Shown: positions 7,646 to 64,000 of the stretch, in pieces
Position numbering within the stretch: the first letter of the stretch is position 1
Layout of the letters: the number at the start of each line of letters is the position of its first letter
Assembly: GCA_035573035.1 (NCBI GenBank)
Contig: DATNAC010000087.1
Span: 2,157 to 66,156 of the forward strand
From: Terriglobales bacterium
GTDB taxonomy: Bacteria > Acidobacteriota > Terriglobia > Terriglobales > SCQP01
Direction of reading: 5' to 3'
Length of the DNA: 64,000 bases
Notes under the pieces: model-generated
The model's database searches: none
What the model saw: the letters and a program-made list of their open reading frames with translations, nothing else
What the model was told of the DNA's origin: nothing
Program-made: the position numbers and the translations under genes

Positions 7646-9013
<1,368 letters not shown>

Positions 9014-13923: not shown

Positions 13924-13939
13924 TGGCACATCGGGTGCA
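13924..13939 (+). promoter_or_regulatory. Candidate sigma-54 (-24/-12) promoter in front of the second activator gene
   Basis: TGGCAC-ATCGG-GTGCA with GG-N10-GC spacing, 33 nt before the ATG at 13973. GAAGG RBS in between. Confidence 0.5.
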
Positions 13940-13972: not shown

Positions 13973-15352
13973 ATGACTGGACTACCACACATACTCATTG
14001 CCGATGATCAGGAAGCGGTGCGGGAGATTTGCGTCAGCCTGGCTACCAGTCTCGGATACCGCGCGAGCGGCGTTGCCAGCGGCAGGGAGGCGATGCGCGT
14101 CTGGGACCAGGAGCCGGCCCATGTGCTGGTGTGCGACGTGCGGCTGCCCGACATGAGCGGAGTCGAGCTCATGAAGCGCTGGCGGCAGCGTTGGCCCGCG
14201 GCCCCGGTGCTGTTGACGACCGCATACGGCACGGTGGGCATGGCGGTGGAGGCAATGAAGCTGGGCGCCAGCGATTACGTCACCAAACCCTTCGAACTCG
14301 AGGAAATGCGGCTGCTATTGCAGAATTGCGTGCGCCGCGCGCAGGTCGAAGGCGAAGGACGACGGCTGCATTTGGGGGCGCGCTCGCCGGCGGCGGGCGG
14401 CACGCTGATTGGAAGTTCGCCCTCCATGCAGCGCGTCTTCCGCTTGATCGGCAAGGTGGCGCAAAGCCGGTATTCGGTGCTCATTCTGGGCGAGAGTGGC
14501 ACCGGAAAGGAAGTGGTCGCGCGGGCATTGCACTATACCGGACCGGAGCGCGACCGCCCTTTCCTGCCGGTCGATTGCGGCGCCTTGGTGCCCTCCCTGG
14601 TGGAGAGCGAGTTGTTCGGATACGTGAAGGGGGCGTTTACCGGCGCGCACCACAACCATCAAGGCCTGTTGGAGGTCGCGAACGGCGGTACCGTCTTTTT
14701 GGATGAGATCGGCGAACTCCCGCTTGACCTCCAGGTCAAGCTGCTGCGTGCGATCCAAGAGAAAGAGGTGCGCCCGGTTGGGGCCACGCGGCGCATCCCG
14801 GTGGACGTGCGCATCGTAGCCGCCACCAACCGCGACTTGCAGACGGCGGTGGCGGAGGGGCGGTTCCGCAAGGATTTATTCTTCCGCTTGAACGTGGTCA
14901 GCATCAAGCTGCCGCCGCTACGCGAGCGCGTGATGGACATTCCGCTGCTGGTCGAGCACTTTCTCGACCGCTTCACGCCGCCGGGCATGCCGGTGCGCAC
15001 CTTCAGCGATGAGGCCATGGCGCGCATGCTGGCCTACGACTGGCCGGGCAATATCCGCGAACTGGAGAACTGCGTGGAACGCACGCTGGCGTTGGCGCCG
15101 GGTCCGCGGCTGGAGGCGGCGGATCTGCCCAGCGCGTTGCAGCAACTACAACCGCGGGCGCCGATCGCCCGCCACGATTCCAATACCGTACGAGCCATGG
15201 TTGAGGTGGAGCGCGAAGCGATTCTGGATGCCCTCTCCCAGGCCAAAGGCGACAAGCTCCTGGCAGCCAAGCTGCTGGGCATCGGCAAGACGACGATCTA
15301 CCGCAAACTCAAGGAGTACACCTTTGCGGCGCAAGCCGGAGGCGGCCAATGA
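13973..15352 (+). CDS. Sigma-54-dependent response regulator (REC, AAA+, Fis-type HTH; NtrC family)
   Basis: REC domain ILIADDQEAV...LVCDVRLPDMSG. GESGTGKEVVARALH, KGAFTGA, and HTH LLAAKLLGIGKTTIYRKLKEY. Confidence 0.93.
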   Translation: MTGLPHILIADDQEAVREICVSLATSLGYRASGVASGREAMRVWDQEPAHVLVCDVRLPDMSGVELMKRWRQRWPAAPVLLTTAYGTVGMAVEAMKLGASDYVTKPFELEEMRLLLQNCVRRAQVEGEGRRLHLGARSPAAGGTLIGSSPSMQRVFRLIGKVAQSRYSVLILGESGTGKEVVARALHYTGPERDRPFLPVDCGALVPSLVESELFGYVKGAFTGAHHNHQGLLEVANGGTVFLDEIGELPLDLQVKLLRAIQEKEVRPVGATRRIPVDVRIVAATNRDLQTAVAEGRFRKDLFFRLNVVSIKLPPLRERVMDIPLLVEHFLDRFTPPGMPVRTFSDEAMARMLAYDWPGNIRELENCVERTLALAPGPRLEAADLPSALQQLQPRAPIARHDSNTVRAMVEVEREAILDALSQAKGDKLLAAKLLGIGKTTIYRKLKEYTFAAQAGGGQ

Positions 15353-16687: not shown

Positions 16688-16776
16688 CTAGCGTAGTGCG
16701 TCACAAATTGCAGGCATTATGCCAATACCCCGAATGCGGCTTTTCCCCAAGAAAAGTGTGTGACGCACTACACTAG
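16688..16776. repeat. Nested inverted-repeat element (18-bp arms, 53-nt interior) including a gene stop codon
   Basis: Arms CTAGCGTAGTGCGTCACA (16688-16705) and TGTGACGCACTACACTAG (16759-16776): 13 bp perfect, 17/18 overall. Inner hairpin GGCAT-T-ATGCC. The right arm contains the TAG stop (16773-16775) of the receptor gene. Confidence 0.7.
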
Positions 16777-19604
16777 AAGCCCACTAGGCGGGCAGTGAAC
16801 TGCACCTGGCGGGGGCCGCCAAATCCGACGGTGGAGGGCGCGAACAGCGGCATCCCGGCACTGAAGACAGGGGATGCCGCGGTTCCGTAGGCGCTCCACT
16901 GCCCCGGACCAAAAGTGCGGTTGCCGGTGTTCAGGACGTTGAAGACATCCATAAACAGATCGAGGTGGTGACCGCGGCCGCGCAGGGTGATGTCCTTGAC
17001 GAAGCGGAGGTCGAGGTCGTACTGCGCCGGCTGGCGCAGCGAGTTGCGGGCGGCCACCTGACCGTTGTTCACGGCGCGGTCGTTAAAGTCGTTGCCGTCG
17101 TTCTGGGTGTCGAAGCCGACGATGGGCGTATAGGGCAGCCCCGAGAGTGCGACAAAAACGGGATTGACCTTGAAGCCAAGGGGCAGATTGTCAGTGGCGC
17201 TGAGGTTGAAGCTATGGCGGATGTCCTGGTTGGAGTCCGCCGCCTCGGCGGCGAGATTGAAGGGGTTGAGGGTCGAGACGATGTCGAAGGGGCCCTCGGT
17301 GGAGGCATCGTCCCGGGTGTGGGAGAGGGTATAGTTGGCGGTCAGCGTCAGGCGATAGGGACCCTTGACGTCGACGGTGGAGAGCCAGCCGTCGTAGGTG
17401 GAGTGGGCACTGGAGTCGTAGCGGAGCAGTTGTCCCACCGCGGGAAGGGGACGGGCGGCCGGGAAAATCGGCATCCCCGTGGCGTCGATCGTGGGCGGGT
17501 CGAGGTTGGCGTTGAGCGTACGCAGCAAGTTCCCGGTGCTGTCGTGGGTGTAACCCGAAGTGAGATCGAAACGCGCGTTCAACCGCTGTTGCACGCTGGC
17601 GCCGGCTTGCACGGAGCGCGGGTTGCGGAAGTTGGGAGCGATGGAAGCGGCCAGGGCCGCGGGGACGGTTAATCCGGCGGGAGCGGCGGTCAGACCCTGG
17701 CCGCCCGCCGCCAAGACCAGCACCTGCGGATCGTAAAGGCTGTCAGCCACCACCGTGTTTAGGCCATTGTCGGTGAAGACGCGGGCAAAGTACGTGGCCG
17801 GGGTGGGGGCATCGTACATCCCCGAAGAGAGGCGGACGGCCGTGCGGGAATTCGGGTTCCAGGCCAAACCGATACGCGGCTGCCACTCCCGCAGGTCATT
17901 GGGAATCGCGCTGGTGCCCGGGATGGCGGGGTTGGGCCGCGGCGGCTGCGGGTTCCATTGCCCTTCCCAGCGCAGGCCGGCGGTAAGGGTGAGTTTTTCG
18001 CCGAGCGGGAGGCGATCCACGACGTAGGCATCGCCGCGGTGCACCGTTCCGGAATAGAGCAGCGAACCGGCGGAGGCGGCGAAGGTCTGCTGATACCGGA
18101 GCGGGTCGTTGGCCAGGTAGTCGGCCAGCGAGGCGAAATCGTAACGACCGTTCAGATTCGCCTGTTGTTGTTCGCTGCCCGGGTCCTGGGCGAAGCCGCC
18201 GCCGAAATGCACGGTATGGCCGTGCCAAATGATGGCCAAGTCGTCGCTGGCGCCGCGCTGGCGGGAGATGAAGCGGTGCGGACCCTGGCTATCGCCGCCC
18301 AGGGTGCCGAAGCCATTGATGTATTGCTCGGGGGCGGTGCTTCGAGGCATGAGGTCGCGGCGATCGCCGGCCCACTGGGCGACAATTTGGTTCACCACCC
18401 CGGAGGCGGCGGCCGCGGTCCAGTTGGCGTGGATCCAATCGCTCTGGCCAGCGAGCGAATCGCCGTGCGCCGCCACCGCGGATACCTGGGTCGAGTCCGG
18501 GTTGACGTTGCGGTAGCTGATCCGGTTGTAGTTCCCCTCCAGGGTGAGGGTGTTGTGGTTGTCGATCACGAAGTCAAGGCGTAGCGACAGCGCGGTGGGG
18601 TCATTGCGCCCGACGGTCTGGCCCTGCAGGCTGGCCAGCGCGGCCGGCACGCTCACCCCGCTGGCCTGGGGCTGAAACTCGGTGTAATAGGGTACGTTCA
18701 CGAAGTCCTGTTCGCCGCCCACGTAGTAAAAGATCCGTCCGGGCTTGATGTCGCCGCCGATGGAGCCGCCAATCTCGTTCTGGGTGTCGCTCAGGGGGTG
18801 AGCGAAGGCGTCGCTGCCGGTGAGCGCGGCGGGACGGAAAATAAAGAATTGCTCGCCATGGATACGGTCGCTGCCGGCTTTGGTGGCGACGTTCATCAGA
18901 CCGCCGTTGGTGTCGCCGACATCGGCGGATGCGCCGGCATGCACCAGTTGAAACTCCTGCACCACGGTCTGCGGGAAAAAGAAGCCGCCGTCGGCTCCGC
19001 CGCGGCGACCGCCCTCCAGCGGGTCGTCGAAATCGGCGCCGTCCACCTCGGTCAGGGCGGCGTTGGCGCGCTGGCCATCCACCTCGACTCCGGTATCGGT
19101 CTCCTGCGCTCCCGCGGCCAGCGCGGCGAACTGGGTAAAGTCGCGATCGCGGTTGGGCAGATAGGTGACGGTCAGGCCGGCGATGGCGTTTGCGACCGTG
19201 GCTGCGTCCTTATCGACCGCGGGTGCGACGGTTTGCCCCTCCACGTTGGCCGGACCGGCGGTCACGGTGACCTCCTGCCCGCCCGAGGCGAGACTCAGGC
19301 GCAGCGTTACCTGAACACTCCCGCCCACCCCCAGCGTGACCGCCTGCGCCCGCCCGAGCTTGAGCCCGGGCGCGATGGCGGTCACCGAGTAGGCGCCGGG
19401 CGAAAGCTGTGCCAGCGTGAAATGCCCATTCCGGTCGGCGGCGATGGTGCGATGGCTGCCCAGCGCCGTATTGGTGGCGGTAACCTGGGCGCCGGGAACA
19501 ACTCGTTGCTGCGGGTCTTGTACCGTTCCGGTGATGGTGCCGACGGCGGCTTGGCTGAATGCCAATACGCCCAGGAGTAGGGTCGTCAACCCGATTTTCA
19601 GCAT
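16773..19604 (-). CDS. TonB-dependent outer-membrane receptor with N-terminal carboxypeptidase-regulatory-like domain (Oar-like)
   Basis: 943 aa. Signal peptide, then GTITGTVQDPQQRVVPGAQVTATN...DRNGHFTLAQLSPGAYSVTA (CarboxypepD_reg), and a long beta-barrel ending in the aromatic terminus FTARLVGF. Confidence 0.9.
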   Translation of the reverse strand: MLKIGLTTLLLGVLAFSQAAVGTITGTVQDPQQRVVPGAQVTATNTALGSHRTIAADRNGHFTLAQLSPGAYSVTAIAPGLKLGRAQAVTLGVGGSVQVTLRLSLASGGQEVTVTAGPANVEGQTVAPAVDKDAATVANAIAGLTVTYLPNRDRDFTQFAALAAGAQETDTGVEVDGQRANAALTEVDGADFDDPLEGGRRGGADGGFFFPQTVVQEFQLVHAGASADVGDTNGGLMNVATKAGSDRIHGEQFFIFRPAALTGSDAFAHPLSDTQNEIGGSIGGDIKPGRIFYYVGGEQDFVNVPYYTEFQPQASGVSVPAALASLQGQTVGRNDPTALSLRLDFVIDNHNTLTLEGNYNRISYRNVNPDSTQVSAVAAHGDSLAGQSDWIHANWTAAAASGVVNQIVAQWAGDRRDLMPRSTAPEQYINGFGTLGGDSQGPHRFISRQRGASDDLAIIWHGHTVHFGGGFAQDPGSEQQQANLNGRYDFASLADYLANDPLRYQQTFAASAGSLLYSGTVHRGDAYVVDRLPLGEKLTLTAGLRWEGQWNPQPPRPNPAIPGTSAIPNDLREWQPRIGLAWNPNSRTAVRLSSGMYDAPTPATYFARVFTDNGLNTVVADSLYDPQVLVLAAGGQGLTAAPAGLTVPAALAASIAPNFRNPRSVQAGASVQQRLNARFDLTSGYTHDSTGNLLRTLNANLDPPTIDATGMPIFPAARPLPAVGQLLRYDSSAHSTYDGWLSTVDVKGPYRLTLTANYTLSHTRDDASTEGPFDIVSTLNPFNLAAEAADSNQDIRHSFNLSATDNLPLGFKVNPVFVALSGLPYTPIVGFDTQNDGNDFNDRAVNNGQVAARNSLRQPAQYDLDLRFVKDITLRGRGHHLDLFMDVFNVLNTGNRTFGPGQWSAYGTAASPVFSAGMPLFAPSTVGFGGPRQVQFTARLVGF

Positions 19605-53634: not shown

Positions 53635-53650
53635 TGGCATTCAAACTGCG
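53635..53650 (+). promoter_or_regulatory. Candidate sigma-54 (-24/-12) promoter
   Basis: TGGCAT-TCAAA-CTGCG with GG-N10-GC spacing, 39 nt before the ATG at 53690. Confidence 0.45.
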
Positions 53651-53689
53651 ATGAGGTGAATAGACTGCAAGTATGAATTGAGGTTCCTC

Positions 53690-53902
53690 ATGCTCCAGCC
53701 CGAGATGTCGGTTGGGCCCACTCCCGCCCGGCTGGTTTGGAAACGCTGCTTCGGCTGCGAAGGCTATTTCCAGGGACCGCTCGACGGCGGCTACCGCTGC
53801 CCGGGTTGCGTCCATAGGGTTGATGAACTGCGCCCGCGTCGCTACGGGCTTCTCACCAAGCCGGCCCACAAGCAACGGAACGCCAGAGCGCATGCGGCCT
53901 GA
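53690..53902 (+). CDS. Small zinc-ribbon protein (70 aa), hypothetical
   Basis: CFGC-N17-CPGC (RCFGCEGYFQGPLDGGYRCPGC). GAGG RBS 6 nt upstream, GC3 about 78 percent, basic C-terminus. Confidence 0.45.
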   Translation: MLQPEMSVGPTPARLVWKRCFGCEGYFQGPLDGGYRCPGCVHRVDELRPRRYGLLTKPAHKQRNARAHAA

Positions 53903-54140
53903 TCGGTACCCAGGCCTCGCGGGATACGCTTGGCCAAACCCGGCAACCCAATCTCATGCCGATCAACGCCTGGGCTAGAACCCTCAGCCCTGCGTCATTT
54001 CACACACGCTGCTGGCGCGAAACTCGCAGTGCGAGTGTTGCGCCCCCGGCAAGCAATGCAGGCGCGGTCCCCGCGCCCATCAAACGCCCCGGGTCGCTGG
54101 GCGGCCTTGGAAGTTGCGCTGGGGCCGCGGCTATCAATAT

Positions 54141-54156
54141 TGGCCGTCCAACTGCT
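54141..54156 (+). promoter_or_regulatory. Candidate sigma-54 (-24/-12) promoter
   Basis: TGGCCG-TCCAA-CTGCT with GG-N10-GC spacing, 24 nt before the ATG at 54181. GGAGG RBS in between. Confidence 0.5.
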
Positions 54157-54180
54157 TTCTCACCCTTGTCGGAGGTTTTT

Positions 54181-55116
54181 ATGTCGCAGCCCCAGGCCCT
54201 CTCCATCCCGGCTGACCCTCATTCGCACACCGCGCGCTACCGCTTGCAACGCGTGCTCGTTGCCACCGATTTTTCCGCGCCCGCCGAACGGGCCCTCCAA
54301 ATCGCGATTCGCTGGGCGCGCCAATACGATGCGGAGTTGATGCTGGTGTCGGTGGTCACTCCCGTCATGTCCGCCCCTCTGCCCGACGTCACCGAATCGG
54401 CCTGGGCCGCGGTTCAGGTTGAGGCCGAGTTGCTCAACTCCACCCAGAGCCGCCTTGCCGGGCTCGCCCATGACCGTCCCGAAATGCAAGGCCTGCGGCA
54501 CCGCGAGTATGCGTGCCAGGGTATGGTCGCTGGAACCATCGTGGCCGCCGCCGCCGAGCTCAAGGCTGATCTGGTCGTCGTCGGTACGAGCGCTGCCGGA
54601 CCGGTCCGCAATCTGCTGCTCGGCTCGACCGCGCAGGCCGTCATCCGCCATTGCGGCTGTCCGGTTCTGTTGGTCGGGCCCGAGGCCGAGAGCGGGCCAT
54701 CCCGCGGCAGCGTTCTCCTGGCCACCGACTTGGGCGCCGAGTCGCTGCGTCCGGCAGAATTCGCCGCCGCCATCGCCGCGGACACCAAGGCTCGCTTGAA
54801 CTTGCTGCACGTGGTGCACGATCCGGTCCCCGGCCTCGAACCCGAGATGCGCGCGGAGATCGAACGCGCGATCGAGGGCCAGTTACGCCGCCTTAGCCCC
54901 GCTGGAACCGACACGCAAACCCGTGTGGCATATGGCCACGCCGCATCCGCGATTGTGGCGGCCGCGGGCGAGTCTCGGGCCGGTTTGATCGTGATGGGAG
55001 TCAAACACGAAACTTGGTTCGGTGATCACGCGGGCCGAAGCACGCTCGCGCAGGTCGCCCAATTGGCACCGTGCCCCATATTGGCGGTACGCCATCATTC
55101 CGCTGAGACTGCGTAA
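54181..55116 (+). CDS. Universal stress protein, tandem Usp domains
   Basis: Start at the ATG at 54181. Two repeats of the pattern VLVATDFS...LVVVGTSAAGPVRNLLLGSTAQAVIRHCGCPVLLV and VLLATDLG...LIVMGVKH...STLAQVAQLAPCPILAV. Confidence 0.9.
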   Translation: MSQPQALSIPADPHSHTARYRLQRVLVATDFSAPAERALQIAIRWARQYDAELMLVSVVTPVMSAPLPDVTESAWAAVQVEAELLNSTQSRLAGLAHDRPEMQGLRHREYACQGMVAGTIVAAAAELKADLVVVGTSAAGPVRNLLLGSTAQAVIRHCGCPVLLVGPEAESGPSRGSVLLATDLGAESLRPAEFAAAIAADTKARLNLLHVVHDPVPGLEPEMRAEIERAIEGQLRRLSPAGTDTQTRVAYGHAASAIVAAAGESRAGLIVMGVKHETWFGDHAGRSTLAQVAQLAPCPILAVRHHSAETA

Positions 55117-55350
55117 TATGGTTTCGACTTCGAAGGGGCGAAACTCGCGTGTTGAGTTGCGCGCCCCGGCAAAAGCAATGCGTCAGTGTAAGGCGCACAA
55201 GAAGAGTGCCGGGCGCGTGGCCTTCCGCGCTGATCGGCGCGAAAGGCTGCGGAATATCAACGCCATCCGCGCTGGGGGCCGCGCCCATGCCTCGCGGATG
55301 CCCCGAGCGGTGCGGGCATCCGCTGCCGGTAATCGAAGCCCGGCCTCCGA

Positions 55351-55393
55351 GCGGCCAACGGGAGCGACCCAGCGCAAAAAGTGGCCGTGCCAC
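55351..55393 (+). repeat. Dispersed intergenic repeat, copy B (43 nt)
   Basis: GCGGCCAACGGGAGCGACCCAGCGCAAAAAGTGGCCGTGCCAC. See copy A at 11716-11756. Confidence 0.85.
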
Positions 55394-55401
55394 GCCGCCC
55401 G

Positions 55402-56076
55402 TCAAGGCGCAACGCTGATTCGATTATCGACCACGCTCACCCCCGGAGCCGACCAGGCCACGCCCATCGCTTGCTGCCATTCCGCCCACGAACGTACGCT
55501 GCCCCGGAGGATTACTTCGGATCCATTCACCTCGACTTTGACCCGGTGAGCATCGTGCAAGGCTCCTCGTAACAAGGCCGCTTCAATCTTGGTTTCCAAT
55601 CCGGAAGCGGCTACGGCCGGCCGGATCGTGATCCGGTTGTCCACCCCCCGGACGCCCATGAGGCGCCACACGGCATCCTCCGCCGCCCGCCTCTGGTATT
55701 GCCACTCCACTTCGCCGGTCAACGTGAGCAGTCCTTGCGCGACTGTGATCCGAATCTTCTCCCGCGGCACCGACGCGTCCCACTCCAAAGCCTGGACCGC
55801 CGCTCGCGCGATATCCGAATCACTGCGCTCGGCGAAGCTCGGCAGATGCACCTCGATCTCATTCGCGACCGCGTACACCCCGCGCACGCGCTGTACCGCC
55901 TCCTCCGCCGTCCACTTTTTCGTGAGCGAGTCGACCCGGCCGGTCAGCGTAGCCACGCCGCCGGCCACCGTCACCCCGATCTCGTTGGGCTGCAACCGCG
56001 CGTCCCAGCGCAATTCCGCCTCCACATCGCGCTGAACCATCTCATCAGCTTTGATCACCGAAAGTACTCTGGCCAT
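55402..56076 (-). CDS. BON-domain protein (three BON repeats, OsmY-like)
   Basis: Start moved to the ATG at 56076 with a GGGGGA RBS. Three units of the type V.V.V..G.VTLTG.V...........A......GV..V.N.I.V. Confidence 0.88.
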   Translation of the reverse strand: MARVLSVIKADEMVQRDVEAELRWDARLQPNEIGVTVAGGVATLTGRVDSLTKKWTAEEAVQRVRGVYAVANEIEVHLPSFAERSDSDIARAAVQALEWDASVPREKIRITVAQGLLTLTGEVEWQYQRRAAEDAVWRLMGVRGVDNRITIRPAVAASGLETKIEAALLRGALHDAHRVKVEVNGSEVILRGSVRSWAEWQQAMGVAWSAPGVSVVDNRISVAP

Positions 56077-56176
56077 GGTTCCCCCTTGGGCGTTTGCATC
56101 CTGCTTGCGATACCGAGGCTGCCGGAATCGCCCGACCGGCGCCTCGGTACGGGCCCTTGCCCGCGTCCCCGCGCCT

Positions 56177-56680
56177 CTAGGCGGCGAGAGCCTGAATTCC
56201 ATGCTTCTCCGGAGCCGCTTTCGCGGCTTCGATATGGAGCCGGCCGTGATCGAGGCTCGCCGCCGTTTTGTCAATGTTGATCGCCTGCGGCAGGTCCACG
56301 CGCCGGTAGACCTCGTCGGCCCCGAACTCGGACCAGAGGACGCGCCGGCCCTGAAACTTCGATTCCTTTTTGCTTTTGGCGTGCACGATGAGCCCGGCGG
56401 GTGTCGCCGAGACCTCTACCTCGTTTGCGGTGAATCCGGGCAACGCCAAATCGAGATGGTAGCCACCGTCGTCCTCCGACAGTTCGCCAGCCGACCACCC
56501 CAACGTTTCCCGCTCGGCTTTGAGCCAGTTCTCCAGAGCATGCCCGTCGGCGCACCGCTGCCCGTCGAAGATTTCGAAGGCCCGGCGCTGGATCGCCTGG
56601 AAGCGCTTTTCGATCTCCGCCAATGCCGGAATCGGATTGTGTTGCATGTCTTGGCTTTTTTCAACTGCGACCGCTGCCAT
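56177..56680 (-). CDS. Hsp20/alpha-crystallin small heat-shock protein with DUF2934-like N-terminal segment
   Basis: Start at the ATG at 56680 (GGGGGAGG RBS). N-terminus QRRAFEIFDGQRCADGHALENWLKAERE. ACD region GYHLDLALPGFTANEVEV...RRVDLPQAINIDKTAASLDHGRLHIEA. Confidence 0.9.
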   Translation of the reverse strand: MAAVAVEKSQDMQHNPIPALAEIEKRFQAIQRRAFEIFDGQRCADGHALENWLKAERETLGWSAGELSEDDGGYHLDLALPGFTANEVEVSATPAGLIVHAKSKKESKFQGRRVLWSEFGADEVYRRVDLPQAINIDKTAASLDHGRLHIEAAKAAPEKHGIQALAA

Positions 56681-56707
56681 AAAGTATTCCTCCCCCGCAT
56701 ATACCAC

Positions 56708-56723
56708 AGCAAGCCGGATGCCA
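56708..56723 (-). promoter_or_regulatory. Candidate sigma-54 (-24/-12) promoter (best match in the window)
   Basis: The minus strand reads TGGCAT-CCGGC-TTGCT, 27 nt before the Hsp20 ATG at 56680, inside a 54-nt spacer. Confidence 0.6.
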
Positions 56724-56734
56724 CATGCGCACCG

Positions 56735-57610
56735 TTACCCCCGCAGCGTCAGTACCGGGCAGGGCGCATCGCACACGATCCTGTGGGTGAGCGTCGACAG
56801 ATGATCGGTCATTCCGGCGGAGCCCCGGGCCCCCATGACGATCAGGTCCGCTTTGAGTTCTCCGGCGGCGGTGAGGATGCAATCAGCCGGTGGTCCCACG
56901 TCAAGGCGGATCTCCGGAGGGGTCCAGAAGCAGACGCCGCCGGGCTTGAGCGCCCCCAGCCTCCGCTCCGCGGCTTCATAGCGCGAAGTGTCCCCGGCAT
57001 GCTGCGGTGGTATCGCGTGCATCAAGGTCAATTGCGCGCGATACTCCTGCGCCAGCCGGCCGGCATACTCGGCGACCCGCTCCGATGCGTCTCCCAAGCC
57101 GCAGGCGGCGAGGATGCTGTAAAACTCGCTGCCGTGGCGAGTGTGCCAGGCATTCGGACCGACCGTCAGCACCGGGCAGGGCAGCGACCGCAGGATGTTT
57201 TCCGAGGTGGATCCCAGGATGAGGCGGCCGACGCCGTTACGTCCACTGGCTCCCACCACCGCCAGATCGATTTTCTCCTCGGCTACGAACTCCGGTAACA
57301 CCAGTTCCGGCCGGCCCTGCAGCAAATGCGCCTGATGGGCGAGACCGGCCAGCAAGGCGGAGTGGTCAACCGCGTCGAGCTGCTCCTGGCCCACCCGCAG
57401 CATCCAGCATAGGGTCGGGGAACTGACGTCGGGCGTGGCGTCATAGGGCCGCATCCAGACCACATGCGCGAGATGCAGTCGAGCGTTGTGCTTGCCCGCC
57501 AACTCCGCGGCGAAACGAACGGCGGCGTTGGCCGCCGGCGAAAAGTCTGTTGTCACCAGTATCTCTTTGAGCCCGAGCGCGGCCGCCGGGGATGCCATCG
57601 CGTTTGACAT
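56735..57610 (-). CDS. Universal stress protein, tandem Usp domains
   Basis: Start set to the ATG at 57610, which has a GGAGG 5 nt upstream (the track uses GTG at 57622). ILVTTDFSPAANAAV..., LAVVGASGRNGVGRLILGSTSENILRSLPCPVLTV, and a second domain ending MGARGSAGMTDHLSTLTHRIVCDAPCPVLTL. Confidence 0.9.
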   Translation of the reverse strand: MSNAMASPAAALGLKEILVTTDFSPAANAAVRFAAELAGKHNARLHLAHVVWMRPYDATPDVSSPTLCWMLRVGQEQLDAVDHSALLAGLAHQAHLLQGRPELVLPEFVAEEKIDLAVVGASGRNGVGRLILGSTSENILRSLPCPVLTVGPNAWHTRHGSEFYSILAACGLGDASERVAEYAGRLAQEYRAQLTLMHAIPPQHAGDTSRYEAAERRLGALKPGGVCFWTPPEIRLDVGPPADCILTAAGELKADLIVMGARGSAGMTDHLSTLTHRIVCDAPCPVLTLRG

Positions 57611-57634
57611 AACAGCCTCCACAAATGGAGGTGG

Positions 57635-57650
57635 TGCAACCGGCCCGCCA
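57635..57650 (-). promoter_or_regulatory. Candidate sigma-54 (-24/-12) promoter
   Basis: The minus strand reads TGGCGG-GCCGG-TTGCA with GG-N10-GC spacing, 24 nt before the ATG at 57610. Confidence 0.5.
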
Positions 57651-57804
57651 TATCGCGCGATCCGCCTCGTACTGATTCCATGGCGGATACCGCCAGCGCG
57701 CGATCCGCCGTGGTACTCCTGGTTCGAGCGATGCGGCCTGGCTTGGAGGCCCCTGCCCCGACTCGGGTGAAATGCCCCATGTCAGCCATTTGTGAGAACC
57801 GCGG

Positions 57805-57932
57805 GCTCGAAGTGGTCTCATAATGCCGCAGCAGGCCGCCTGGGGCGAGCTGGATGCGGCTTTTTCTGGGGAAAAAGCCGCACACGATCCATTCGCGTAG
57901 AGTTTGGCACCAATTATGAGACCACTTCTAGC
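57805..57932. repeat. Nested inverted-repeat element (20-bp arms, 88-nt interior) including a gene stop codon
   Basis: Arms GCTCGAAGTGGTCTCATAAT (57805-57824) and ATTATGAGACCACTTCTAGC (57913-57932): 16 bp perfect, 19/20 overall. Inner perfect 10-bp hairpin GCGGCTTTTT-CTGGGG-AAAAAGCCGC (57856-57881). The right arm contains the TAG stop (57928-57930) of the acyl-CoA synthetase gene. Confidence 0.75.
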
Positions 57933-60084
57933 GCTGCACCCGAATGCGGGCGTCGACAATCGCGGCTCCGGCAGGATGTACCACGATAGGGTTGCAGTCG
58001 AGTTCGACGATCTCCGGCATCTGGCTGGCCAACCAGCTCAGGTTCACCAACGCCTCGACTAGCGCGGAGATATTGCACGGCGCCGTACCCCGGTAGCCGC
58101 TGAGCAGAGGCGCGCATCGCAGCCGCCGGATCATCGCCTCGGCCTCCCGCGCGTCGAGAGGCGCGAGCCCCACGGCGATATCGTGAATCAATTCCACCAT
58201 GAAACCGCCTAAACCACAGGCGACGACCGGCCCGAAGATGGGGTCGCGGATCACGCCGAGGATCATCTCCACGCCCGGCGGCGCCATTTCCTGAACCAGC
58301 CAACCGGCTGGCTCGAGTCCGCCCCGCTCCAGTGTCGCTTGCATGGCGGCGGCCGCCTTCTGTACCGTCTCGGTGCCCAGCAGGCCGAGCCGTACCGCCC
58401 CAATATCGCTCTTGTGTTGTATGCCCGGCAGGATCGCTTTGAGCGCGGCAGGCGCCGATTCCGAGAATACCGTGAGGCTCTCATCAACCCCGAATGCGCG
58501 CTGCCGCACGAAAGGCAAACCGTAGCCGCTGAGGAGTTCGGCCGTGTCGTGCCCGCTTAGCCAACCGCCGGCGTCGGGGCGGGCCCCCGCCAGCGCCTGC
58601 TGGGCGCGTGCCCGCCGGCTTTCTTCGGGAGCCACGAGTTGGGGCGGCGGCAGTTCGCGCCAAGCGGCATAGCGCGCCGCGTGACCGAGCGCGCGCGCGG
58701 CCATCTCGGGAAACGAATAAGAGGGCAGCGCCCCGGTAGCGGTGCGGAGTTCCGGCAGCGGACCCGGCTTCGACATGAGGACGGTGAGCAGCGGCAGGCC
58801 CCCGTCAAGCGTTTGCGCCCCCGATCGGATGGCCGCGGCCGCGTCCGCCGGAGATGTCACCATGGGCGGAACGAAAATCGCGATCAGTGCGTCGACCTCC
58901 CCGCTGTTGCCCGCGATCTCGATGGCGCGGGTGAAGTGTCCGGCAGGAGCCGAGGCCACCAAATCCACGGGATTGGCTCGGCTCGCATCCGCCAGCAGAC
59001 AAGTGGCCAATTGGGCCTGGGTGGATGCCGAGAAAACCGGCACCGTCAATCCCTCCGCTTCGCACGCGTCCGCGCAAAGAATGCCCGGCCCGCCGGCATT
59101 GGTGACAATGCCCACCCGGCGCCCCGCCGGCAAGGGTTGATGAGCCAGCAGCGCCGCCGCACCGAACATCTCCTCCAGGGTATCCGTCCGCACCACGCCG
59201 GCTCGCTCGAACAAGGCGGCTACGGTCGAATCGTTGGCGGCCAGCAGCGCACCGGTGTGAGAGCCGCAAGCGCGCGCGCCGGCGCGCGTACGCCCGCTCT
59301 TGATGGCAAGAATGGGCTTCCGGCGCGATACCTGGCGCGCGATCGAGGCAAACCGCTGAGAATTCCCAAAAGATTCCAGGTACAGAAGCACGACCCCTAC
59401 GGCGGGGTCGTCCCTCCATAACTCGAGCAGGTCGTTGCTGGAGATATCGGCGTTGTTTCCGATCGAAGCGAAGCGCGCCAGCCCAAGCCCGAACTCCTGG
59501 GCCTGCTCCAGCACGGCCAGCCCCAGCGCTCCGCTCTGCGAGATGAAGCCGATGTTTCCAGGTATGGGCGCGTGCGGCGCGAAGGTGGCGTTCAGCTTCA
59601 CCCGCTCGTCGGTATTGATAAGTCCGAGACAGTTGGGCCCGATCAGGGGCACGCCCGCGACGCGGCAGAGATCGCGGAGCGAATCCTGCCGGCTGCTTCC
59701 GGCGGCGCCGCATTCGGCAAAGCCGGCCGAAATCACCACCAGGGCCCGCACCCCTTGGGCGATGCAGGCGCCCGCCACTTCCAACACCGACGCCGCGGGA
59801 GTGGCGATGATGGCCAGGTCCACTATCGCCGGGACGGCGGTGATGTCAGGATACGCTTGCACACTGTGGACGACAGGAGAGCGGGCATTCACCGGGTACA
59901 CAACGCCCTGGAAATCGCCCGCAAGCAGGTTGAGGAAAATCGCGCCTCCGACGTGATCCGCCCGGCGCGATGCTCCGATCACCGCAATGGACCGCGGAGT
60001 GAACAGCGCATCCAGTGCACCGAGCAGAGCGGGCAGCCCGCTGTGGAAAACGGCTTCTTGCCGGGGCGGAAGAATTGACGGCAT
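57928..60084 (-). CDS. ADP-forming acetyl-CoA (acyl-CoA) synthetase, fused alpha/beta type
   Basis: Start moved to the ATG at 60084. LFTPRSIAVIGASRRADHVGGAIFLNLL...GVVYPVNARSPVVHSVQAY...DLAIIATPA...ALVVISAGFAE (CoA-binding/ligase-CoA domains) plus a C-terminal ATP-grasp. Confidence 0.87.
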   Translation of the reverse strand: MPSILPPRQEAVFHSGLPALLGALDALFTPRSIAVIGASRRADHVGGAIFLNLLAGDFQGVVYPVNARSPVVHSVQAYPDITAVPAIVDLAIIATPAASVLEVAGACIAQGVRALVVISAGFAECGAAGSSRQDSLRDLCRVAGVPLIGPNCLGLINTDERVKLNATFAPHAPIPGNIGFISQSGALGLAVLEQAQEFGLGLARFASIGNNADISSNDLLELWRDDPAVGVVLLYLESFGNSQRFASIARQVSRRKPILAIKSGRTRAGARACGSHTGALLAANDSTVAALFERAGVVRTDTLEEMFGAAALLAHQPLPAGRRVGIVTNAGGPGILCADACEAEGLTVPVFSASTQAQLATCLLADASRANPVDLVASAPAGHFTRAIEIAGNSGEVDALIAIFVPPMVTSPADAAAAIRSGAQTLDGGLPLLTVLMSKPGPLPELRTATGALPSYSFPEMAARALGHAARYAAWRELPPPQLVAPEESRRARAQQALAGARPDAGGWLSGHDTAELLSGYGLPFVRQRAFGVDESLTVFSESAPAALKAILPGIQHKSDIGAVRLGLLGTETVQKAAAAMQATLERGGLEPAGWLVQEMAPPGVEMILGVIRDPIFGPVVACGLGGFMVELIHDIAVGLAPLDAREAEAMIRRLRCAPLLSGYRGTAPCNISALVEALVNLSWLASQMPEIVELDCNPIVVHPAGAAIVDARIRVQR

Positions 60085-60086
60085 GG

Positions 60087-60704
60087 TCACCGGCTCCTGA
60101 CGGGCGGCTGCGCTCGCGAGCCGGCAACGACGCCCGGCCGCAAAAGGTACCATCCCATTACGACCGACATCAATCCCATGCCGACCGGAAACAGCACGTA
60201 CTGCTCCCTGCGCACAAAGCTCTGCACAATCAAAAGCGTCAGGGCGGCGGCGATGGCAAGCTCGCCGGCGATCCGCGCCGACCATTCGCCGGTGACAATG
60301 CCGAGCGCGACGTAGACCAATACCACGGTAAAAACCGCGCCCAGAGTAAATCCGGACAATAAGGCGGCGTTCAGGCCGGCATGGAACAGATCCTTGGCCG
60401 CCACCAGGCCCAGCCAAAAACCGCCCGTTGCCCAGGGCAAACTGAACACCAGCAGCGCGGTCGCCAGGGATCCGCGAAACCAGGTCGGATGGATCTCCGG
60501 CCAACGCAACCGGGCTCCCAGCAACATCGCCAGAATCGGCCCAACCGGGAGAAAGGCGCCGATGCACCACAGCCAGCCGTTTTCGTAAGGTACAGCGTTG
60601 GCGGCCACGCCCGCGGCTGCGCCCAATACCAGAAACACCGACAAGCGGCCGGCAACGGCGGCCAGCGATCGCGGAGTTAAGGCGGATAGGGGTTCAGCGG
60701 GCAT
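60087..60704 (-). CDS. Integral membrane protein, unknown function (about 6 TM)
   Basis: Start set to the ATG at 60704 (MPAEPLS...). Strongly hydrophobic, no family recognised. The stop lies 2 nt before the synthetase ATG, and the start overlaps the upstream Hsp20 stop by 11 nt. Confidence 0.6.
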   Translation of the reverse strand: MPAEPLSALTPRSLAAVAGRLSVFLVLGAAAGVAANAVPYENGWLWCIGAFLPVGPILAMLLGARLRWPEIHPTWFRGSLATALLVFSLPWATGGFWLGLVAAKDLFHAGLNAALLSGFTLGAVFTVVLVYVALGIVTGEWSARIAGELAIAAALTLLIVQSFVRREQYVLFPVGMGLMSVVMGWYLLRPGVVAGSRAQPPVRSR

Positions 60705-61182
60705 GGCGGGTGCCCTTCTTGCCTTGCCGGCCCTCCGGCGCAGGTAATACACGAATGTCCAATACGCCGCGGTTCAGATGAGCTTTGACTTCACCCGTCT
60801 CACGGTCGCAGGGCAGGGGGATGCGCCTACAAATAACGCGCCCGCCGAATTCATCCAAAAAGATGCGGCCGCGGCCGTCGCGTTCGTGGCAGGTGCCGTA
60901 GAGCACGGCGCAGTCCGTTCCCACGTCCAGTTCAAGATCGCGGAGCCCGAATCCGGGCACCTCGGCCCGCAGCAGGAGGGTGCCGTCGTCGTTTTCCATC
61001 AGCTGTGTCGGGACCGGCCGCGTCAACTCGCGCTCAGCCTCCAACCAGTGCTCCAGGGCGCGGCCGGGAATGGACCCCTCCGCTTCATACAATTCGTATG
61101 CGCGGCGTTCCAACCGGCTCTGGAACTGCTCGACGCGGGCCTGCGCACGTTCCTCGCTTTTGGTGATCAATATTCCGGGCAT
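60694..61182 (-). CDS. Hsp20/alpha-crystallin small heat-shock protein with DUF2934-like N-terminal segment
   Basis: Start moved to the ATG at 61182 (GAAGGAAG RBS). N-terminus LERRAYELYEAEGSIPGRALEHWLEAEREL. ACD region LLLRAEVPGFGLRDLELDV...RRIPLPCDRETGEVKAHLNRGVLDIRV. Confidence 0.85.
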   Translation of the reverse strand: MPGILITKSEERAQARVEQFQSRLERRAYELYEAEGSIPGRALEHWLEAERELTRPVPTQLMENDDGTLLLRAEVPGFGLRDLELDVGTDCAVLYGTCHERDGRGRIFLDEFGGRVICRRIPLPCDRETGEVKAHLNRGVLDIRVLPAPEGRQGKKGTRHAR

Positions 61183-61366
61183 AAGCTTCCTTCGTCGCGT
61201 GGTGGCCGGCGGCTTTGGCGCCGCTCGCCCTCTACCGTTGCACGCCGGTCCCCACTGAAGGCAAGGCATCGGGAACGGCCAAACGGGGTTGCTCGGCTTC
61301 CGACTGAGGGTGGGCCTGAGGCAGATGCCGCAAGGTGCGGAGGTTGACCCCATTTGCGGGATCCAC

Positions 61367-62197
61367 TCACATCAGCGCCGCCACGCCGAGCATGATCTCC
61401 TCGATTTCCTCGGTCGTGGCTTCCTGTACGGCGGCGTTCAAGCGAAAGCCCACCTGCTCCACGCGGCGGTCGACTTCGCGCACGGCCCCCTCGAGATGCC
61501 GGGCGCGCTGCCGGTTTTCGGCCATCACCGAGGTCAGGTAGATGGCGCTCATCAGTCCCGCAAGGTATTCGTCTGCCAGTTCCAGGAGGAACGTGTCCGG
61601 CCGCTCATGCAACCGTGGCGGGTAGGGATAGAGACGGGGTTCGCGGCGTTGCAAGCGCGAGAAGGGCCGCACCACGCGGGTGGTCAAGCCGCTTTCGGTG
61701 TCGTCGTTATAAATCACGGTGAAATCCGCGGGCATGGCGCCTTGGTCGCGCAGCAGCGGATAGAGTCTCTTCAGCACGCCGGTCATTTCATTTGAGCGCG
61801 CGGGCATCGGGATGGTCAAGGCAACCCGCGGGTCGCTGCCGTACCGCAGCGCCATGCGCGTGCCCGCCAGCGCGATTCGGATGGCCCGGCGATCGCCGGC
61901 GCACCGGGCAAGGAGAGCTGCCCAAAGGCTCTGGTTGAAGGCGCCACAAAAGCCACGCTCGGATCCCATCAGGAAAAAGACCTGGGGAGCGCCCAAATCG
62001 CATCGCGGTGCGCGGCCGTAGTGGCCGAGATAGTCGCTCACCGCCCGTTCCAGTACATGCATGCTTGCCTGCTGTGCCTCCGCCGCCGGCCGCAGTTTCA
62101 GCGCCTCGGCAAGCGACAGATTCTTCATCGCCGCCAGGACCTCGCGCACTTGTGTCAACGCATGCTGGCGGGCGCGCAACTCCGACCGCCGTCCCAT
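61367..62197 (-). CDS. atpG: F-type ATPase gamma subunit (alternate/N-type-like)
   Basis: The ATG at 62197 overlaps the alpha stop (ATGA). LTQVREVLAAMKNLSLAE, GSERGFCGAFN and the C-terminal TTEEIEEIMLGVAAL match gamma signatures. Divergent overall. Confidence 0.85.
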   Translation of the reverse strand: MGRRSELRARQHALTQVREVLAAMKNLSLAEALKLRPAAEAQQASMHVLERAVSDYLGHYGRAPRCDLGAPQVFFLMGSERGFCGAFNQSLWAALLARCAGDRRAIRIALAGTRMALRYGSDPRVALTIPMPARSNEMTGVLKRLYPLLRDQGAMPADFTVIYNDDTESGLTTRVVRPFSRLQRREPRLYPYPPRLHERPDTFLLELADEYLAGLMSAIYLTSVMAENRQRARHLEGAVREVDRRVEQVGFRLNAAVQEATTEEIEEIMLGVAALM

Positions 62198-63696
62198 CAG
62201 GATGCCGCCTCCGCCGCCGGCGGGCGTCGTTCCTCCCATCGCTGTGTCAATGCGGTCATAGCCGCCGCCCACCGCGAGCGGCCGGATCCGAGCTGTAAGT
62301 CCAGAGCCGGCACTTCCGCGGTCAAGAAGTGCAAATAATCGGCCATGTCAGCGGGTTGCCGCGAATCGAGCCGGTGCTCGTTGAAAGCGACCAACCAGGC
62401 CAGGTGCAGTTCGGGCGCCTGGGGCATGCGCGGAGCCTGTTTCAAAATTTCGCGCAGCAGCCGGCCGCGGTGAATTTGCAGCGCAATTGAGGCTTCGAGT
62501 TTGGCCCCAAAACGGGTGAACACCTCCAATTCCAGAAAACGCAGGTAGTCGAGCTTCATGCGCCCCGCTTCAGTGCGGATGGCCGGCGGCTGGGCCGCGC
62601 CGCCGATGCGGGATACCGAGCGCGTCACATCGATCGCGGGCAGGATGCCCGCGGAGAACAGCGGGGCGGCAAAGTAAACTTGCCCGTCGGTGATCGAAAT
62701 CAGATTGGTGGGGATATAGGTGGCCAGCTCGCCCTCGTGCGTTTCCGCCAGGGCCAGCGCGGTCATCGTCCCGCCCCCACGCGCCCGCGAGAGGCTCGCG
62801 GCGCGCTCCAGCAGGCGGGCATGGAGATAAAAGATATCTGCCGGAAAGGCCTCGCGGCCCGGCGGCCGCCGCAGCAGCAGCGACAGTTCGCGGTAGCAGT
62901 CGGCATGGGTGGTGAGATCGTCGTAGACGACCAGGGTGTCTTGACCGCGGCGCATCCAGTATTCCGCGACGGCGGCGCCCGCGAACGGCGCCAGGTACTG
63001 CAACCCCGGCAGCGAGGCCGCATCGGCGGCCACCAGGCAGGTGTAGTCCAGGGCGCCGCCGCGGCGTAGCGCTTCCAGCACGCCGGCCACGCTCGCGCGC
63101 CGTTGTCCGATCGCGACGTAAACGCAACGCACGCCTTGGTCGCGCTGGCGCAACACCACGTCGAGGGCGAGCGTGGTCTTGCCCAGGCCGTTATCGCCGA
63201 TGAAGAGCTGCCGCTGGCCGCGCCCGATCGGAATCATGGTGTCGACGATCCGGTTGCCGGTGAACAGGGGCCGGCTCACAAAATCGCGATCGACGATGGG
63301 GGGTGAAAGAATGTCGAGCGGCCCGCGTTCCACACAGTCCGGCGCCTCGCGCTCGTCCAGCGCCCCGCCCAGCGGGTCCAGAACGCGCCCGAGTACGGCT
63401 TCGCCCACCGGCAGGGTGAGTTGCCACCCGGCCGATCGTACCTGCATGCCGGTAGCCAGACCCCCGCTGGAGCGCAACAGAATCCCTCCCAGCGAATCCT
63501 CCGCCAATTGGCAAACCAGTGCCTGGCTGCCGTCCTCAAACTCGAGCACGTCATCGATGGCCGCCGAGGGCAGTCCGGCAACCCAAACAATGCCGTCGCC
63601 GACGGCGGTGACGCGCCCGGACTCGGCAACGCGCAGGCCAGGCGTATAGGTTGCCAGCCAGGCGCGCTGCTGCTCGAGCGGTGCCCAGCGCGCCAT
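62197..63696 (-). CDS. atpA: F-type ATPase alpha subunit (alternate/N-type-like)
   Basis: REAFPADIFYLHARLLERAA and IPTNLISITDGQVYF are alpha signatures. The P-loop reads GDNGLGKT instead of the usual GDRQTGKT. Confidence 0.9.
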   Translation of the reverse strand: MARWAPLEQQRAWLATYTPGLRVAESGRVTAVGDGIVWVAGLPSAAIDDVLEFEDGSQALVCQLAEDSLGGILLRSSGGLATGMQVRSAGWQLTLPVGEAVLGRVLDPLGGALDEREAPDCVERGPLDILSPPIVDRDFVSRPLFTGNRIVDTMIPIGRGQRQLFIGDNGLGKTTLALDVVLRQRDQGVRCVYVAIGQRRASVAGVLEALRRGGALDYTCLVAADAASLPGLQYLAPFAGAAVAEYWMRRGQDTLVVYDDLTTHADCYRELSLLLRRPPGREAFPADIFYLHARLLERAASLSRARGGGTMTALALAETHEGELATYIPTNLISITDGQVYFAAPLFSAGILPAIDVTRSVSRIGGAAQPPAIRTEAGRMKLDYLRFLELEVFTRFGAKLEASIALQIHRGRLLREILKQAPRMPQAPELHLAWLVAFNEHRLDSRQPADMADYLHFLTAEVPALDLQLGSGRSRWAAAMTALTQRWEERRPPAAEAAS

Positions 63697-63697
63697 C

Positions 63698-64000
63698 TTA
63701 CGCGCTCCCCTCTCCCGCCTGACAGAAAGCCGCGAGTTCGTCCGCCAGATTGGCGCTCAGCGTATGCGATCCCGCCTGGATTCGCACTCCGGCGAGCAAC
63801 GTCGCATCCACCGTGCAGTGCAAGGCGGCGGGAGCGGCGCCAAGGCTGGCCAGACCGCCGCTCAGAGCCGCCTCCTGGGCGCCATGCAGCGGATAGGCGC
63901 TGGCCAACTCCACCACGGTCGCGGGCGCATGGCGCAGGGCGTCGCCCTGTGGCGGCGGCAACCGCGCCAAGTCCTCAAGCAGCATGCCGATCAGCCGGTC
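63698..64000 (-). CDS. F-type ATPase delta (OSCP)-like C-terminus, possibly a b/delta fusion (5' part outside the window)
   Basis: The reading frame stays open to the window edge. The C-terminus VVELASAYPLHGAQEAALSGGLASLG...VDATLLAGVRIQAGSHTLSANLADELAAF resembles the OSCP C-terminal pattern (vD.sLiGG..i..g....D.S....L). Confidence 0.55.
   Translation of the reverse strand, partial: DRLIGMLLEDLARLPPPQGDALRHAPATVVELASAYPLHGAQEAALSGGLASLGAAPAALHCTVDATLLAGVRIQAGSHTLSANLADELAAFCQAGEGSA

Follow-up and report, generated by a model that had tools for sequence, protein, structure and literature searches.

We describe four promoter-like elements of the sigma-54 (RpoN) type in a 64-kb stretch of DNA, referred to here as the window, from an uncultured member of the Terriglobales (Acidobacteriota) that was recovered from soil metagenomes and has a genome of ~66% GC. 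The elements, each with the -24/-12 arrangement of a sigma-54 box, stand in front of neighbouring genes in an island that encodes a putative zinc-ribbon protein, two tandem universal stress proteins (USP1 and USP2), and a small heat-shock protein followed by a BON-domain protein (Hsp20-BON). With a probability of roughly 0.7, we propose that at least the boxes of Hsp20-BON (box 3) and USP2 (box 4), probably that of the zinc-ribbon open reading frame (ORF; box 1) and possibly that of USP1 (box 2) are sigma-54 promoters; the same rough figure holds for sigma-54 dependence of the units behind boxes 3 and 4 as a minimum. We grade boxes 3 and 4 as convincing, box 1 as moderate and box 2 as weak. 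The four boxes are located as follows:

53635 to 53650, plus strand: box 1, TGGCAT-TCAAA-CTGCG (TGGCATTCAAACTGCG), 39 nt before the ATG at 53690 (zinc-ribbon ORF)
54141 to 54156, plus strand: box 2, TGGCCG-TCCAA-CTGCT (TGGCCGTCCAACTGCT), 24 nt before the ATG at 54181 (USP1)
56708 to 56723, minus strand: box 3, TGGCAT-CCGGC-TTGCT (TGGCATCCGGCTTGCT), 27 nt before the ATG at 56680 (Hsp20)
57635 to 57650, minus strand: box 4, TGGCGG-GCCGG-TTGCA (TGGCGGGCCGGTTGCA), 24 nt before the ATG at 57610 (USP2)

The coordinates, strands and start-codon distances given for these four GG-N10-GC boxes in an initial annotation of the window are all confirmed from the sequence, as is their placement just upstream of a ribosome-binding site and in the correct orientation for the zinc-ribbon ORF, USP1, Hsp20/BON and USP2, genes which are as it described them. 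In all four boxes, and in a fifth one discussed below, the GG at -24 and the GC at -12 are exactly 10 nt apart. The boxes lie in sense orientation, and the 24-39 nt that separate them from the ATG leave space for a start site ~12 nt after the GC and for a ribosome-binding site. Box presence, position and strand, like the spacing specificity and recurrence reported below, are computed directly; from these properties we infer sigma-54 dependence and the start sites. The predicted transcription starts are at ~53661 for box 1 (29-nt leader with GAGG), ~54167 for box 2 (14-nt leader with GGAGG), ~56697 for box 3 (17-nt leader with GGGAGG) and ~57624 for box 4 (14-nt leader with GGAGG). The near-fixed short distance to the start codon, which the initial annotation had pointed out, is real but not special, because proven boxes in E. 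coli are commonly found ~19-38 nt from the ATG (ygjG, hypA, zraS, zraP, hycA, hydN and rtcB; PMC2831329).

The bare pattern is common in the window, with 103 matches to TGG-N9-TGC and 20 to the stricter TGGC-N7-YTGCD, and significance therefore rests on position and score. We scored the boxes with two matrices. The first is our own approximation of the published TGGCACG-N4-TTGCW consensus and not the frequency table of Barrios 1999; the second was derived, with a flat background, from 18 experimentally established E. coli promoters (PMC2831329, Table 1), which themselves range from 10.2 to 19.0 bits. According to the approximate matrix, box 3 is the best sigma-54 match of the window (16.4 bits; 128 kb of strand scanned), box 4 ranks 14th (11.6 bits) and box 1 ranks 16th (11.2 bits), and box 2 reaches 8.0 bits. 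The E. coli-derived matrix places box 3 (12.6 bits) and box 4 (12.4 bits) inside the proven range, and box 1 (8.4 bits) and box 2 (6.1 bits) under every proven promoter.

The positions of the boxes were evaluated with dinucleotide-preserving shuffles of each 150-nt upstream region, counting those in which a box of at least the same score ended 15-45 nt from the ATG. The resulting p values are 0.0084 for box 1, 0.0236 for box 2, <0.0002 for box 3 and 0.0022 for box 4, with a combined p of 2e-7. At a threshold of at least 11 bits, sense matches with canonical spacing within 80 nt upstream of a gene occur at only 4 of the 41 genes in the window, those starting at 13973, 53690, 56680 and 57610. 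When the gap was changed by -3 to +3 nt, each shift gave 0-1 genes, and the antisense strand gave none (Poisson p 4e-4).

These numbers bear on the explanation that the boxes are chance, non-functional GG-N10-GC matches in a genome of 66% GC, be it all four of them or only boxes 1 and 2. Such an explanation is in line with the abundance of the bare pattern, with scores of boxes 1 and 2 that no proven E. coli promoter shares, and with the finding that, at the level of box 2 (at least 7.9 bits), two genes outside the island have upstream matches too. It is difficult to reconcile with the top rank of box 3, with the fact that the matches are seen only in sense orientation, at canonical spacing and 24-39 nt from the ATG, with the combined positional p value and the Poisson comparison to shifted spacings, and with the recurrence of the same arrangement upstream of diverged USP genes (see below). 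We consider chance improbable and realistic only for box 2, less so for box 1; as a set, the four boxes do not appear to be due to chance. In view of the non-island matches at its score, box 2 alone is not separable from background. The sigma-54 reading of the initial annotation is partly supported: it stands well for boxes 3 and 4, but box 1 scores under the proven range and box 2, taken by itself, at background.

The status of box 2 is the subject of a second alternative, in which only boxes 3 and 4, and perhaps box 1, are real. Box 2 would then be decayed or fortuitous, and USP1 would depend on read-through from box 1 or on a promoter that has escaped recognition. We regard this as quite possible, while leaning against it. 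Box 2 carries C and G at positions -22/-21 and CTGC at -12, besides its background-level score, and read-through from box 1 is favoured by the spacer between the zinc-ribbon ORF and USP1, where a hairpin (54014-54046) is not accompanied by a T-run terminator. Against this, every near-invariant position (T-GGC...TGC) is present in box 2, its 24-nt geometry is the same as that of box 4, and TGGCCG-type -24 elements are found before USP genes elsewhere, for instance at locus L078. Moreover, the promoter-leader regions of USP1 and USP2 can be aligned without gaps through TGGC, TGC, the TTGT-GGAGG segment with the Shine-Dalgarno sequence, and the ATG. The two proteins are only 35% identical, and at this distance any non-coding resemblance not under selection should have disappeared, which argues that the leader geometry is kept by selection and gives box 2 some support beyond its score.

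The window also encodes two enhancer-binding proteins (EBPs), the class of activators on which sigma-54 promoters depend, and the second of these is preceded by a box of its own:

7646 to 9013, minus strand: EBP1, with REC, AAA+ and helix-turn-helix (HTH) domains, GAFTGA at residue 211
13973 to 15352, plus strand: EBP2, with REC, sigma-54-interaction AAA+ and Fis-type HTH domains, GAFTGA at residue 220
13924 to 13939, plus strand: fifth box (TGGCACATCGGGTGCA), 33 nt before the EBP2 ATG at 13973, with the geometry of the island boxes

The presence of EBPs with a GAFTGA motif makes it likely that the organism has sigma-54. The fifth box, not listed in the initial annotation, scores 14.8 bits with the approximate matrix (window rank 3) and 15.9 bits with the E. 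coli-derived one, inside the proven range, and has a shuffle p of 0.0002. This suggests that EBP2 is an autoregulated activator and, because its own box shows the island geometry, we consider EBP2 the most obvious candidate activator of the island promoters. EBP1, whose gene adjoins that of a PAS histidine kinase (5665-7527, minus strand), is an alternative candidate. We rejected the assignment of either protein as the orthologue of the USP-adjacent EBPs in related loci described below, since the identity is ~38% to both.

Other loci were examined for recurrence of the arrangement. Four contigs that encode the same proteins (L001-L004) match the window at 99.8% identity or more and hold no comparative information. 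A search with USP2 of 185,579 species-representative genomes and the JGI metagenomes gave no protein above ~41% identity, and the island Hsp20 has two relatives only, both at ~50% identity (L005 and L006). With no close orthologues, strict phylogenetic footprinting is impossible, and the USP family was tested instead. Among 151 USP-family loci, the best match in the 250 nt upstream of the gene attains 10 bits or more in sense orientation at 28, compared with 3 for the antisense orientation and 2 for gene interiors. When all ORFs of 162 loci (2.0 Mb) are considered, 34 of 181 USP genes (19%) have a sense box of at least 11 bits, while the controls at this threshold give 3 (antisense), 3 (reversed matrix) and 2-9 (shifted spacings). 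Genes outside the USP family have a box in 69 of 1434 cases (4.8%), near their own controls, so that USP genes are enriched with an odds ratio (OR) of 4.6 (p 6e-10). The enrichment is also seen with the E. coli-derived matrix (25 with canonical spacing, 1-10 with shifted spacings, 2 antisense).

The recurring sites fall into many sequence groups. In Acidobacteriota they read TGGTAC-N5-GTGCA and TGG(A/C)AC-N5-TTGCT and lie ~75-95 nt from the ATG, in Nitrospira they read TGGCACCGGCCTTGCT and lie 37 nt from it, and further ones are found in Syntrophobacteraceae, Schlesneria, Vicinamibacterales and others. The short box-to-ATG geometry of the island is also seen elsewhere, with distances of 25 nt (L142), 27 nt (L068) and 33 nt (L050), and the 37 nt of the Nitrospira USP genes belong here as well. 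An EBP gene is located within 4 kb of 13 of the 34 box-bearing USP genes versus 22 of the 147 box-less ones (OR 3.5, p 0.004). In loci of the type represented by L012 the full module is present, in the order HAMP histidine kinase, REC-AAA+-HTH EBP, box and tandem USP.

Some of these USP loci have additional conserved segments. In L008-L014, L017 and L092-L096, Acidobacteriota USP genes whose products begin with MPQ have ~85 nt between box and ATG; their leaders contain conserved blocks, TTGGGA(T)AT... and AGCGCGTGGA...TTGCAG, and conservation is also seen 30-45 nt ahead of the -24 element, in a GCAA-N-TCTTTGTTTCGAA block. All of these could correspond to a structured 5' UTR and to a site for IHF or an upstream activating sequence (UAS). 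A different element, TGGCTTT(T/C)GT(C/T)TTGAA, recurs upstream of Acidobacteriaceae USP genes in L036, L058, L149, L157 and L164. It resembles a -24 element but has no -12 GC, and may represent a different type of promoter or operator.

The relatives of Hsp20 and BON present a patchy picture. The Hsp20 relative in L005, which is 50% identical, has TGGCATGCCGAATGCT 47 nt before its start, and a canonical box is absent in front of that in L006. L168 and L169 also contain Hsp20-BON pairs. Sigma-54 control as a trait of the BON family was considered and rejected, since only one of five distinct relative contexts has a box (L167, 12.4 bits, 50 nt upstream) and L168-L170 are without one. The patchiness indicates that sigma-54 control would be a trait of particular lineages instead of being tied to these protein families.

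A third alternative is that the boxes serve another regulator or sigma factor, of the FNR/FixK type or an extracytoplasmic function sigma factor, and that the genes are read by the sigma-70 holoenzyme. The precedent is the Lxa locus of Burkholderia cenocepacia, which has the same gene content and for which FixK control through TGAT-N6-ATCA has been proposed; in addition, acidobacterial promoters may deviate from the E. coli sigma-70 consensus that was used in the search. That consensus has no match in the four spacers, and its two intragenic matches in 8 kb compare with 1.1 expected. Boxes of the FNR type are expected to be centred ~41 bp ahead of a transcription start. A search of the four spacers for TTGAT-N4-ATCAA or TGAT-N6-ATCA, with up to two mismatches, gave a sole match at 53953, which is 215 nt away from the ATG of USP1, so that none of the four promoters has an FNR-type box. 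The boxes share no common palindrome, and their fixed orientation to the genes is that of a sigma-factor element and unlike that of a site for a dimeric regulator. Furthermore, the enrichment upstream of USP genes depends on the exact sigma-54 spacing, and EBP genes associate with the box-bearing members. We therefore judge control by another factor highly improbable.

Several points weigh against sigma-54 control of the island. Besides the low scores of boxes 1 and 2, the non-island matches and the approximate nature of the first matrix, these are that rpoN is not encoded in the 64-kb window, that no EBP gene is linked to the island, and that a search for a shared UAS (9-mers with at most one mismatch in the five upstream regions), an element to which the cognate EBP typically binds at 70-200 bp upstream, returned only GC-rich noise; the region upstream of box 3 falls within the USP2 coding sequence. 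On the comparative side, close orthologues are lacking, many of the USP-family matches are phylogenetically related and not independent events, and the Hsp20 relative in L006 and the BON relatives in L168-L170 are box-less. Sigma-54 control is nevertheless the best explanation, as it survives the strand, spacer, reversed-matrix, shuffle, E. coli-matrix and homologue-recurrence controls.

The genes of the boxed units, and a structure at the end of one of them, are the following:

53690 to 53902, plus strand: CxxC...CxxC ORF, putative zinc ribbon, 70 aa (gene call in L001)
54181 to 55116, plus strand: USP1, tandem universal stress protein, 311 aa (Pfam Usp twice, E 6e-47)
55381 to 55393, minus strand: terminator-like hairpin and T-run, directly after the BON stop codon
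55402 to 56076, minus strand: BON protein with three BON domains, OsmY-like, 224 aa (Pfam BON three times), downstream of Hsp20 in the same unit
56177 to 56680, minus strand: Hsp20/alpha-crystallin protein with a DUF2934-like N-terminus, 167 aa (Pfam HSP20; annotated as Hsp20 in a Terriglobales metagenome-assembled genome)
56735 to 57610, minus strand: USP2, tandem universal stress protein, 291 aa (Pfam Usp twice, E 3e-47)

The zinc-ribbon ORF has no Pfam match. Its close matches are limited to a single 99%-identical copy, with otherwise few weak partial matches, and it appears to be effectively an orphan. With so few homologues, the grounds for regarding it as a gene are the gene call, a GC content at third codon positions (GC3) like that of its neighbours, and the ribosome-binding site. 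The hairpin at 55381-55393 is the probable end of the Hsp20-BON unit, and the 100-nt spacer in front of BON has no credible sigma-54 box of its own. The first nucleotide of box 3 lies 11 nt past the USP2 stop codon; at this close distance Hsp20-BON could be expressed by read-through from box 4 as well as from its own promoter.

Beyond USP2, the same strand encodes an ADP-forming acetyl-CoA synthetase (ACD), a membrane protein, a second DUF2934-Hsp20 protein (Hsp20b) and an N-ATPase-type operon. The initial annotation had suggested that the island is an RpoN regulon, which goes too far, as boxes are found at four units with five genes, but not at Hsp20b, the membrane protein, ACD and the N-ATPase. 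Upstream of Hsp20b, the membrane protein and ACD, no match reaches 7 bits, and an 11.8-bit match at 62330 falls inside atpA. The statement of the initial annotation that the island contains no EBP gene and the window two is correct. The F-type ATPase operon (61367-64000, continuing in L001 1-4710) has the order epsilon, ATPase_gene1 (AtpQ/I-like), a, c, b, alpha, gamma, which we take to be that of the N-ATPases, alternative Na+/H+ F-type ATPases. It runs directly into Hsp20b, the membrane protein and ACD on one strand, with no sigma-54 box.

The island genes (53690-62000) have a GC3 of 0.75-0.79, compared with 0.80-0.88 for other genes of the window (about 0.76 against 0.82-0.86), and the island BON protein shares 60-66% identity with proteins that carry annotations from Chloroflexota, Myxococcaceae and Binatus. 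Both observations would fit an island that was acquired horizontally.

The surroundings of box 4 contain further sequence features. A direct repeat, GGCGGATCGCGCG, is present twice at 57653-57708 (minus strand), with a distance of 43 nt between its copies, which enclose the palindrome GGCGGTATCCGCC; the copy nearer to box 4 stops 3 nt before the -24 element. The repeat could be the site of a regulator. A CCTCC-ATTTGT-GGAGG hairpin at 57616-57631 (minus strand) has its 5' arm upstream of the start predicted for box 4 and, in transcripts that read through, could hide the Shine-Dalgarno sequence of USP2. Leader hairpins that sequester the Shine-Dalgarno sequence were rejected as a general feature, as folding is no better than in shuffles (z -0.3 to -1.5; USP2 -1.5).

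Between the ACD unit and the USP2 promoter region lies a structured element with a 20-nt inverted repeat (57800-57935), which overlaps the ACD stop codon (dG ~-68 kcal/mol, z -6 to -7). A second structured intergenic element is located at 16690-16790 (minus strand; dG -42.6 kcal/mol, z -4.2), and the inverted repeats of the pair measure 16-20 nt. Both have an internal hairpin, TTCT(T)GGGGAAAA(A)GCCGC, and the loop of the element at 16690-16790 holds the second-best sigma-54-type match of the window (TGGCATAATGCCTGCA). They may belong to a family of small intergenic repeats or small RNA-like elements; an Rfam scan of the window found no family. In the spacers of the island, a hairpin-forming direct repeat, GG(C/G)GCGAAACTCGC...GTTGCGC(G)CCCC followed by GGCAA(A)AGCAATGC, is found upstream (54014-54046) and downstream (55135-55167) of USP1, and the motif GCGCTGGGGCC occurs three times (53496, 54116 and 55268).

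The predicted promoters resemble the classical sigma-54 promoters of E. coli (glnA, zraP, hycA and rtcB) in the TGGC-N7-(T/C)TGC core and the exact GG-N10-GC spacing, and classical NtrC-family systems in the presence of REC-AAA+-HTH activators with GAFTGA in the same genome. They differ in that the island is without a linked EBP or a recognisable UAS, and the leaders are at the short end (14-17 nt predicted). A small heat-shock gene behind a sigma-54 box has a precedent in E. coli ibpB, of the Hsp20 family, a proven target with the box TGGTAAATGGTTTGCT that has served as a positive control in chromatin immunoprecipitation. In contrast to the island, where the distance is 27 nt and the partner is a BON protein, the E. 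coli box is ~170-185 nt from the start and ibpAB is also under heat-shock control. Sigma-54 promoters and NtrC-type activation are textbook knowledge. No mapped sigma-54 promoter from Terriglobales was found in the searched literature.

A computed association between sigma-54 and USP genes has been reported before. A 2025 survey across phyla with position-specific scoring matrices predicted sigma-54 control for the UspA family (COG0589) in Planctomycetia and for IbpA-type chaperones in some classes (PMC12316311). The text of that survey does not include Acidobacteriota or Nitrospirota, whereas we observe the association in both, together with modules of histidine kinase, EBP, box and USP. What is new is a well-supported prediction of sigma-54 boxes in an under-studied phylum and, as a modest extension by comparison, a putative link between USP genes, sigma-54 and EBPs in Acidobacteriota and Nitrospirota. 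In gene content, the island resembles the hypoxia-induced Lxa locus of B. cenocepacia, which clusters USP, hsp20 and BON/phospholipid-binding genes with genes related to acetate and polyhydroxybutyrate metabolism. The two differ in their regulatory elements, with FixK (FNR-type) boxes proposed there and sigma-54-type boxes, and no FNR-type box, at the island.

In the mechanism that we propose, the sigma-54 holoenzyme would bind the -24 GG/-12 GC element and wait there as a closed complex, which would be opened through ATP hydrolysis by a phosphorylated REC-AAA+-HTH EBP with a GAFTGA motif. This could be EBP2, EBP1 together with the PAS kinase, or one encoded in another part of the genome. Initiation ~12 nt past the GC would yield very short leaders (14-29 nt) that retain the Shine-Dalgarno sequence, and the genes would stay completely silent as long as no sensor kinase reports stress. 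As for the nature of the signal, we infer that oxygen or energy limitation is plausible, by analogy with the hypoxia-induced Lxa gene set and with Acidobacterium capsulatum, in which usp genes rise 7-56-fold at 0.1 uM O2 (PMC11636273); the same data set has a histidine kinase with 84-fold induction.

We speculate further that in Acidobacteriota, Nitrospirota and some other soil phyla a conserved circuit, leading from a kinase through a REC-type EBP and a -24/-12 box to tandem USP genes, serves as a master switch for survival in dormancy or at low oxygen and is, on a sigma-54 basis, a functional analogue of DosR in mycobacteria or of Lxa/FixK in Burkholderia. In the organism studied here, the circuit would act in trans, with EBP2 as an autoregulated orphan that drives an unlinked and possibly acquired island of USP, Hsp20-BON and zinc-ribbon genes. 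We offer this extended scheme tentatively and consider it rather unlikely in its entirety.

The finding leaves the knowledge of sigma-54 itself unchanged. Its interest lies in the organisms, since Acidobacteriota rank with the most abundant bacteria of soils and hardly any experiments have addressed how they regulate their genes. Should the sigma-54 assignment be correct, it would provide concrete promoters for USP and Hsp20-BON stress genes along with candidate activators, and would show how such organisms switch a stress or dormancy programme tightly off and on. A gene set for which FNR-type control has been proposed in Burkholderia would be wired to sigma-54 here. In addition, the result for the USP family, in which 19% of the genes are preceded by a box, often beside pairs of histidine kinase and EBP genes, may serve as a lead for the reconstruction of regulons in Acidobacteriota and Nitrospirota.

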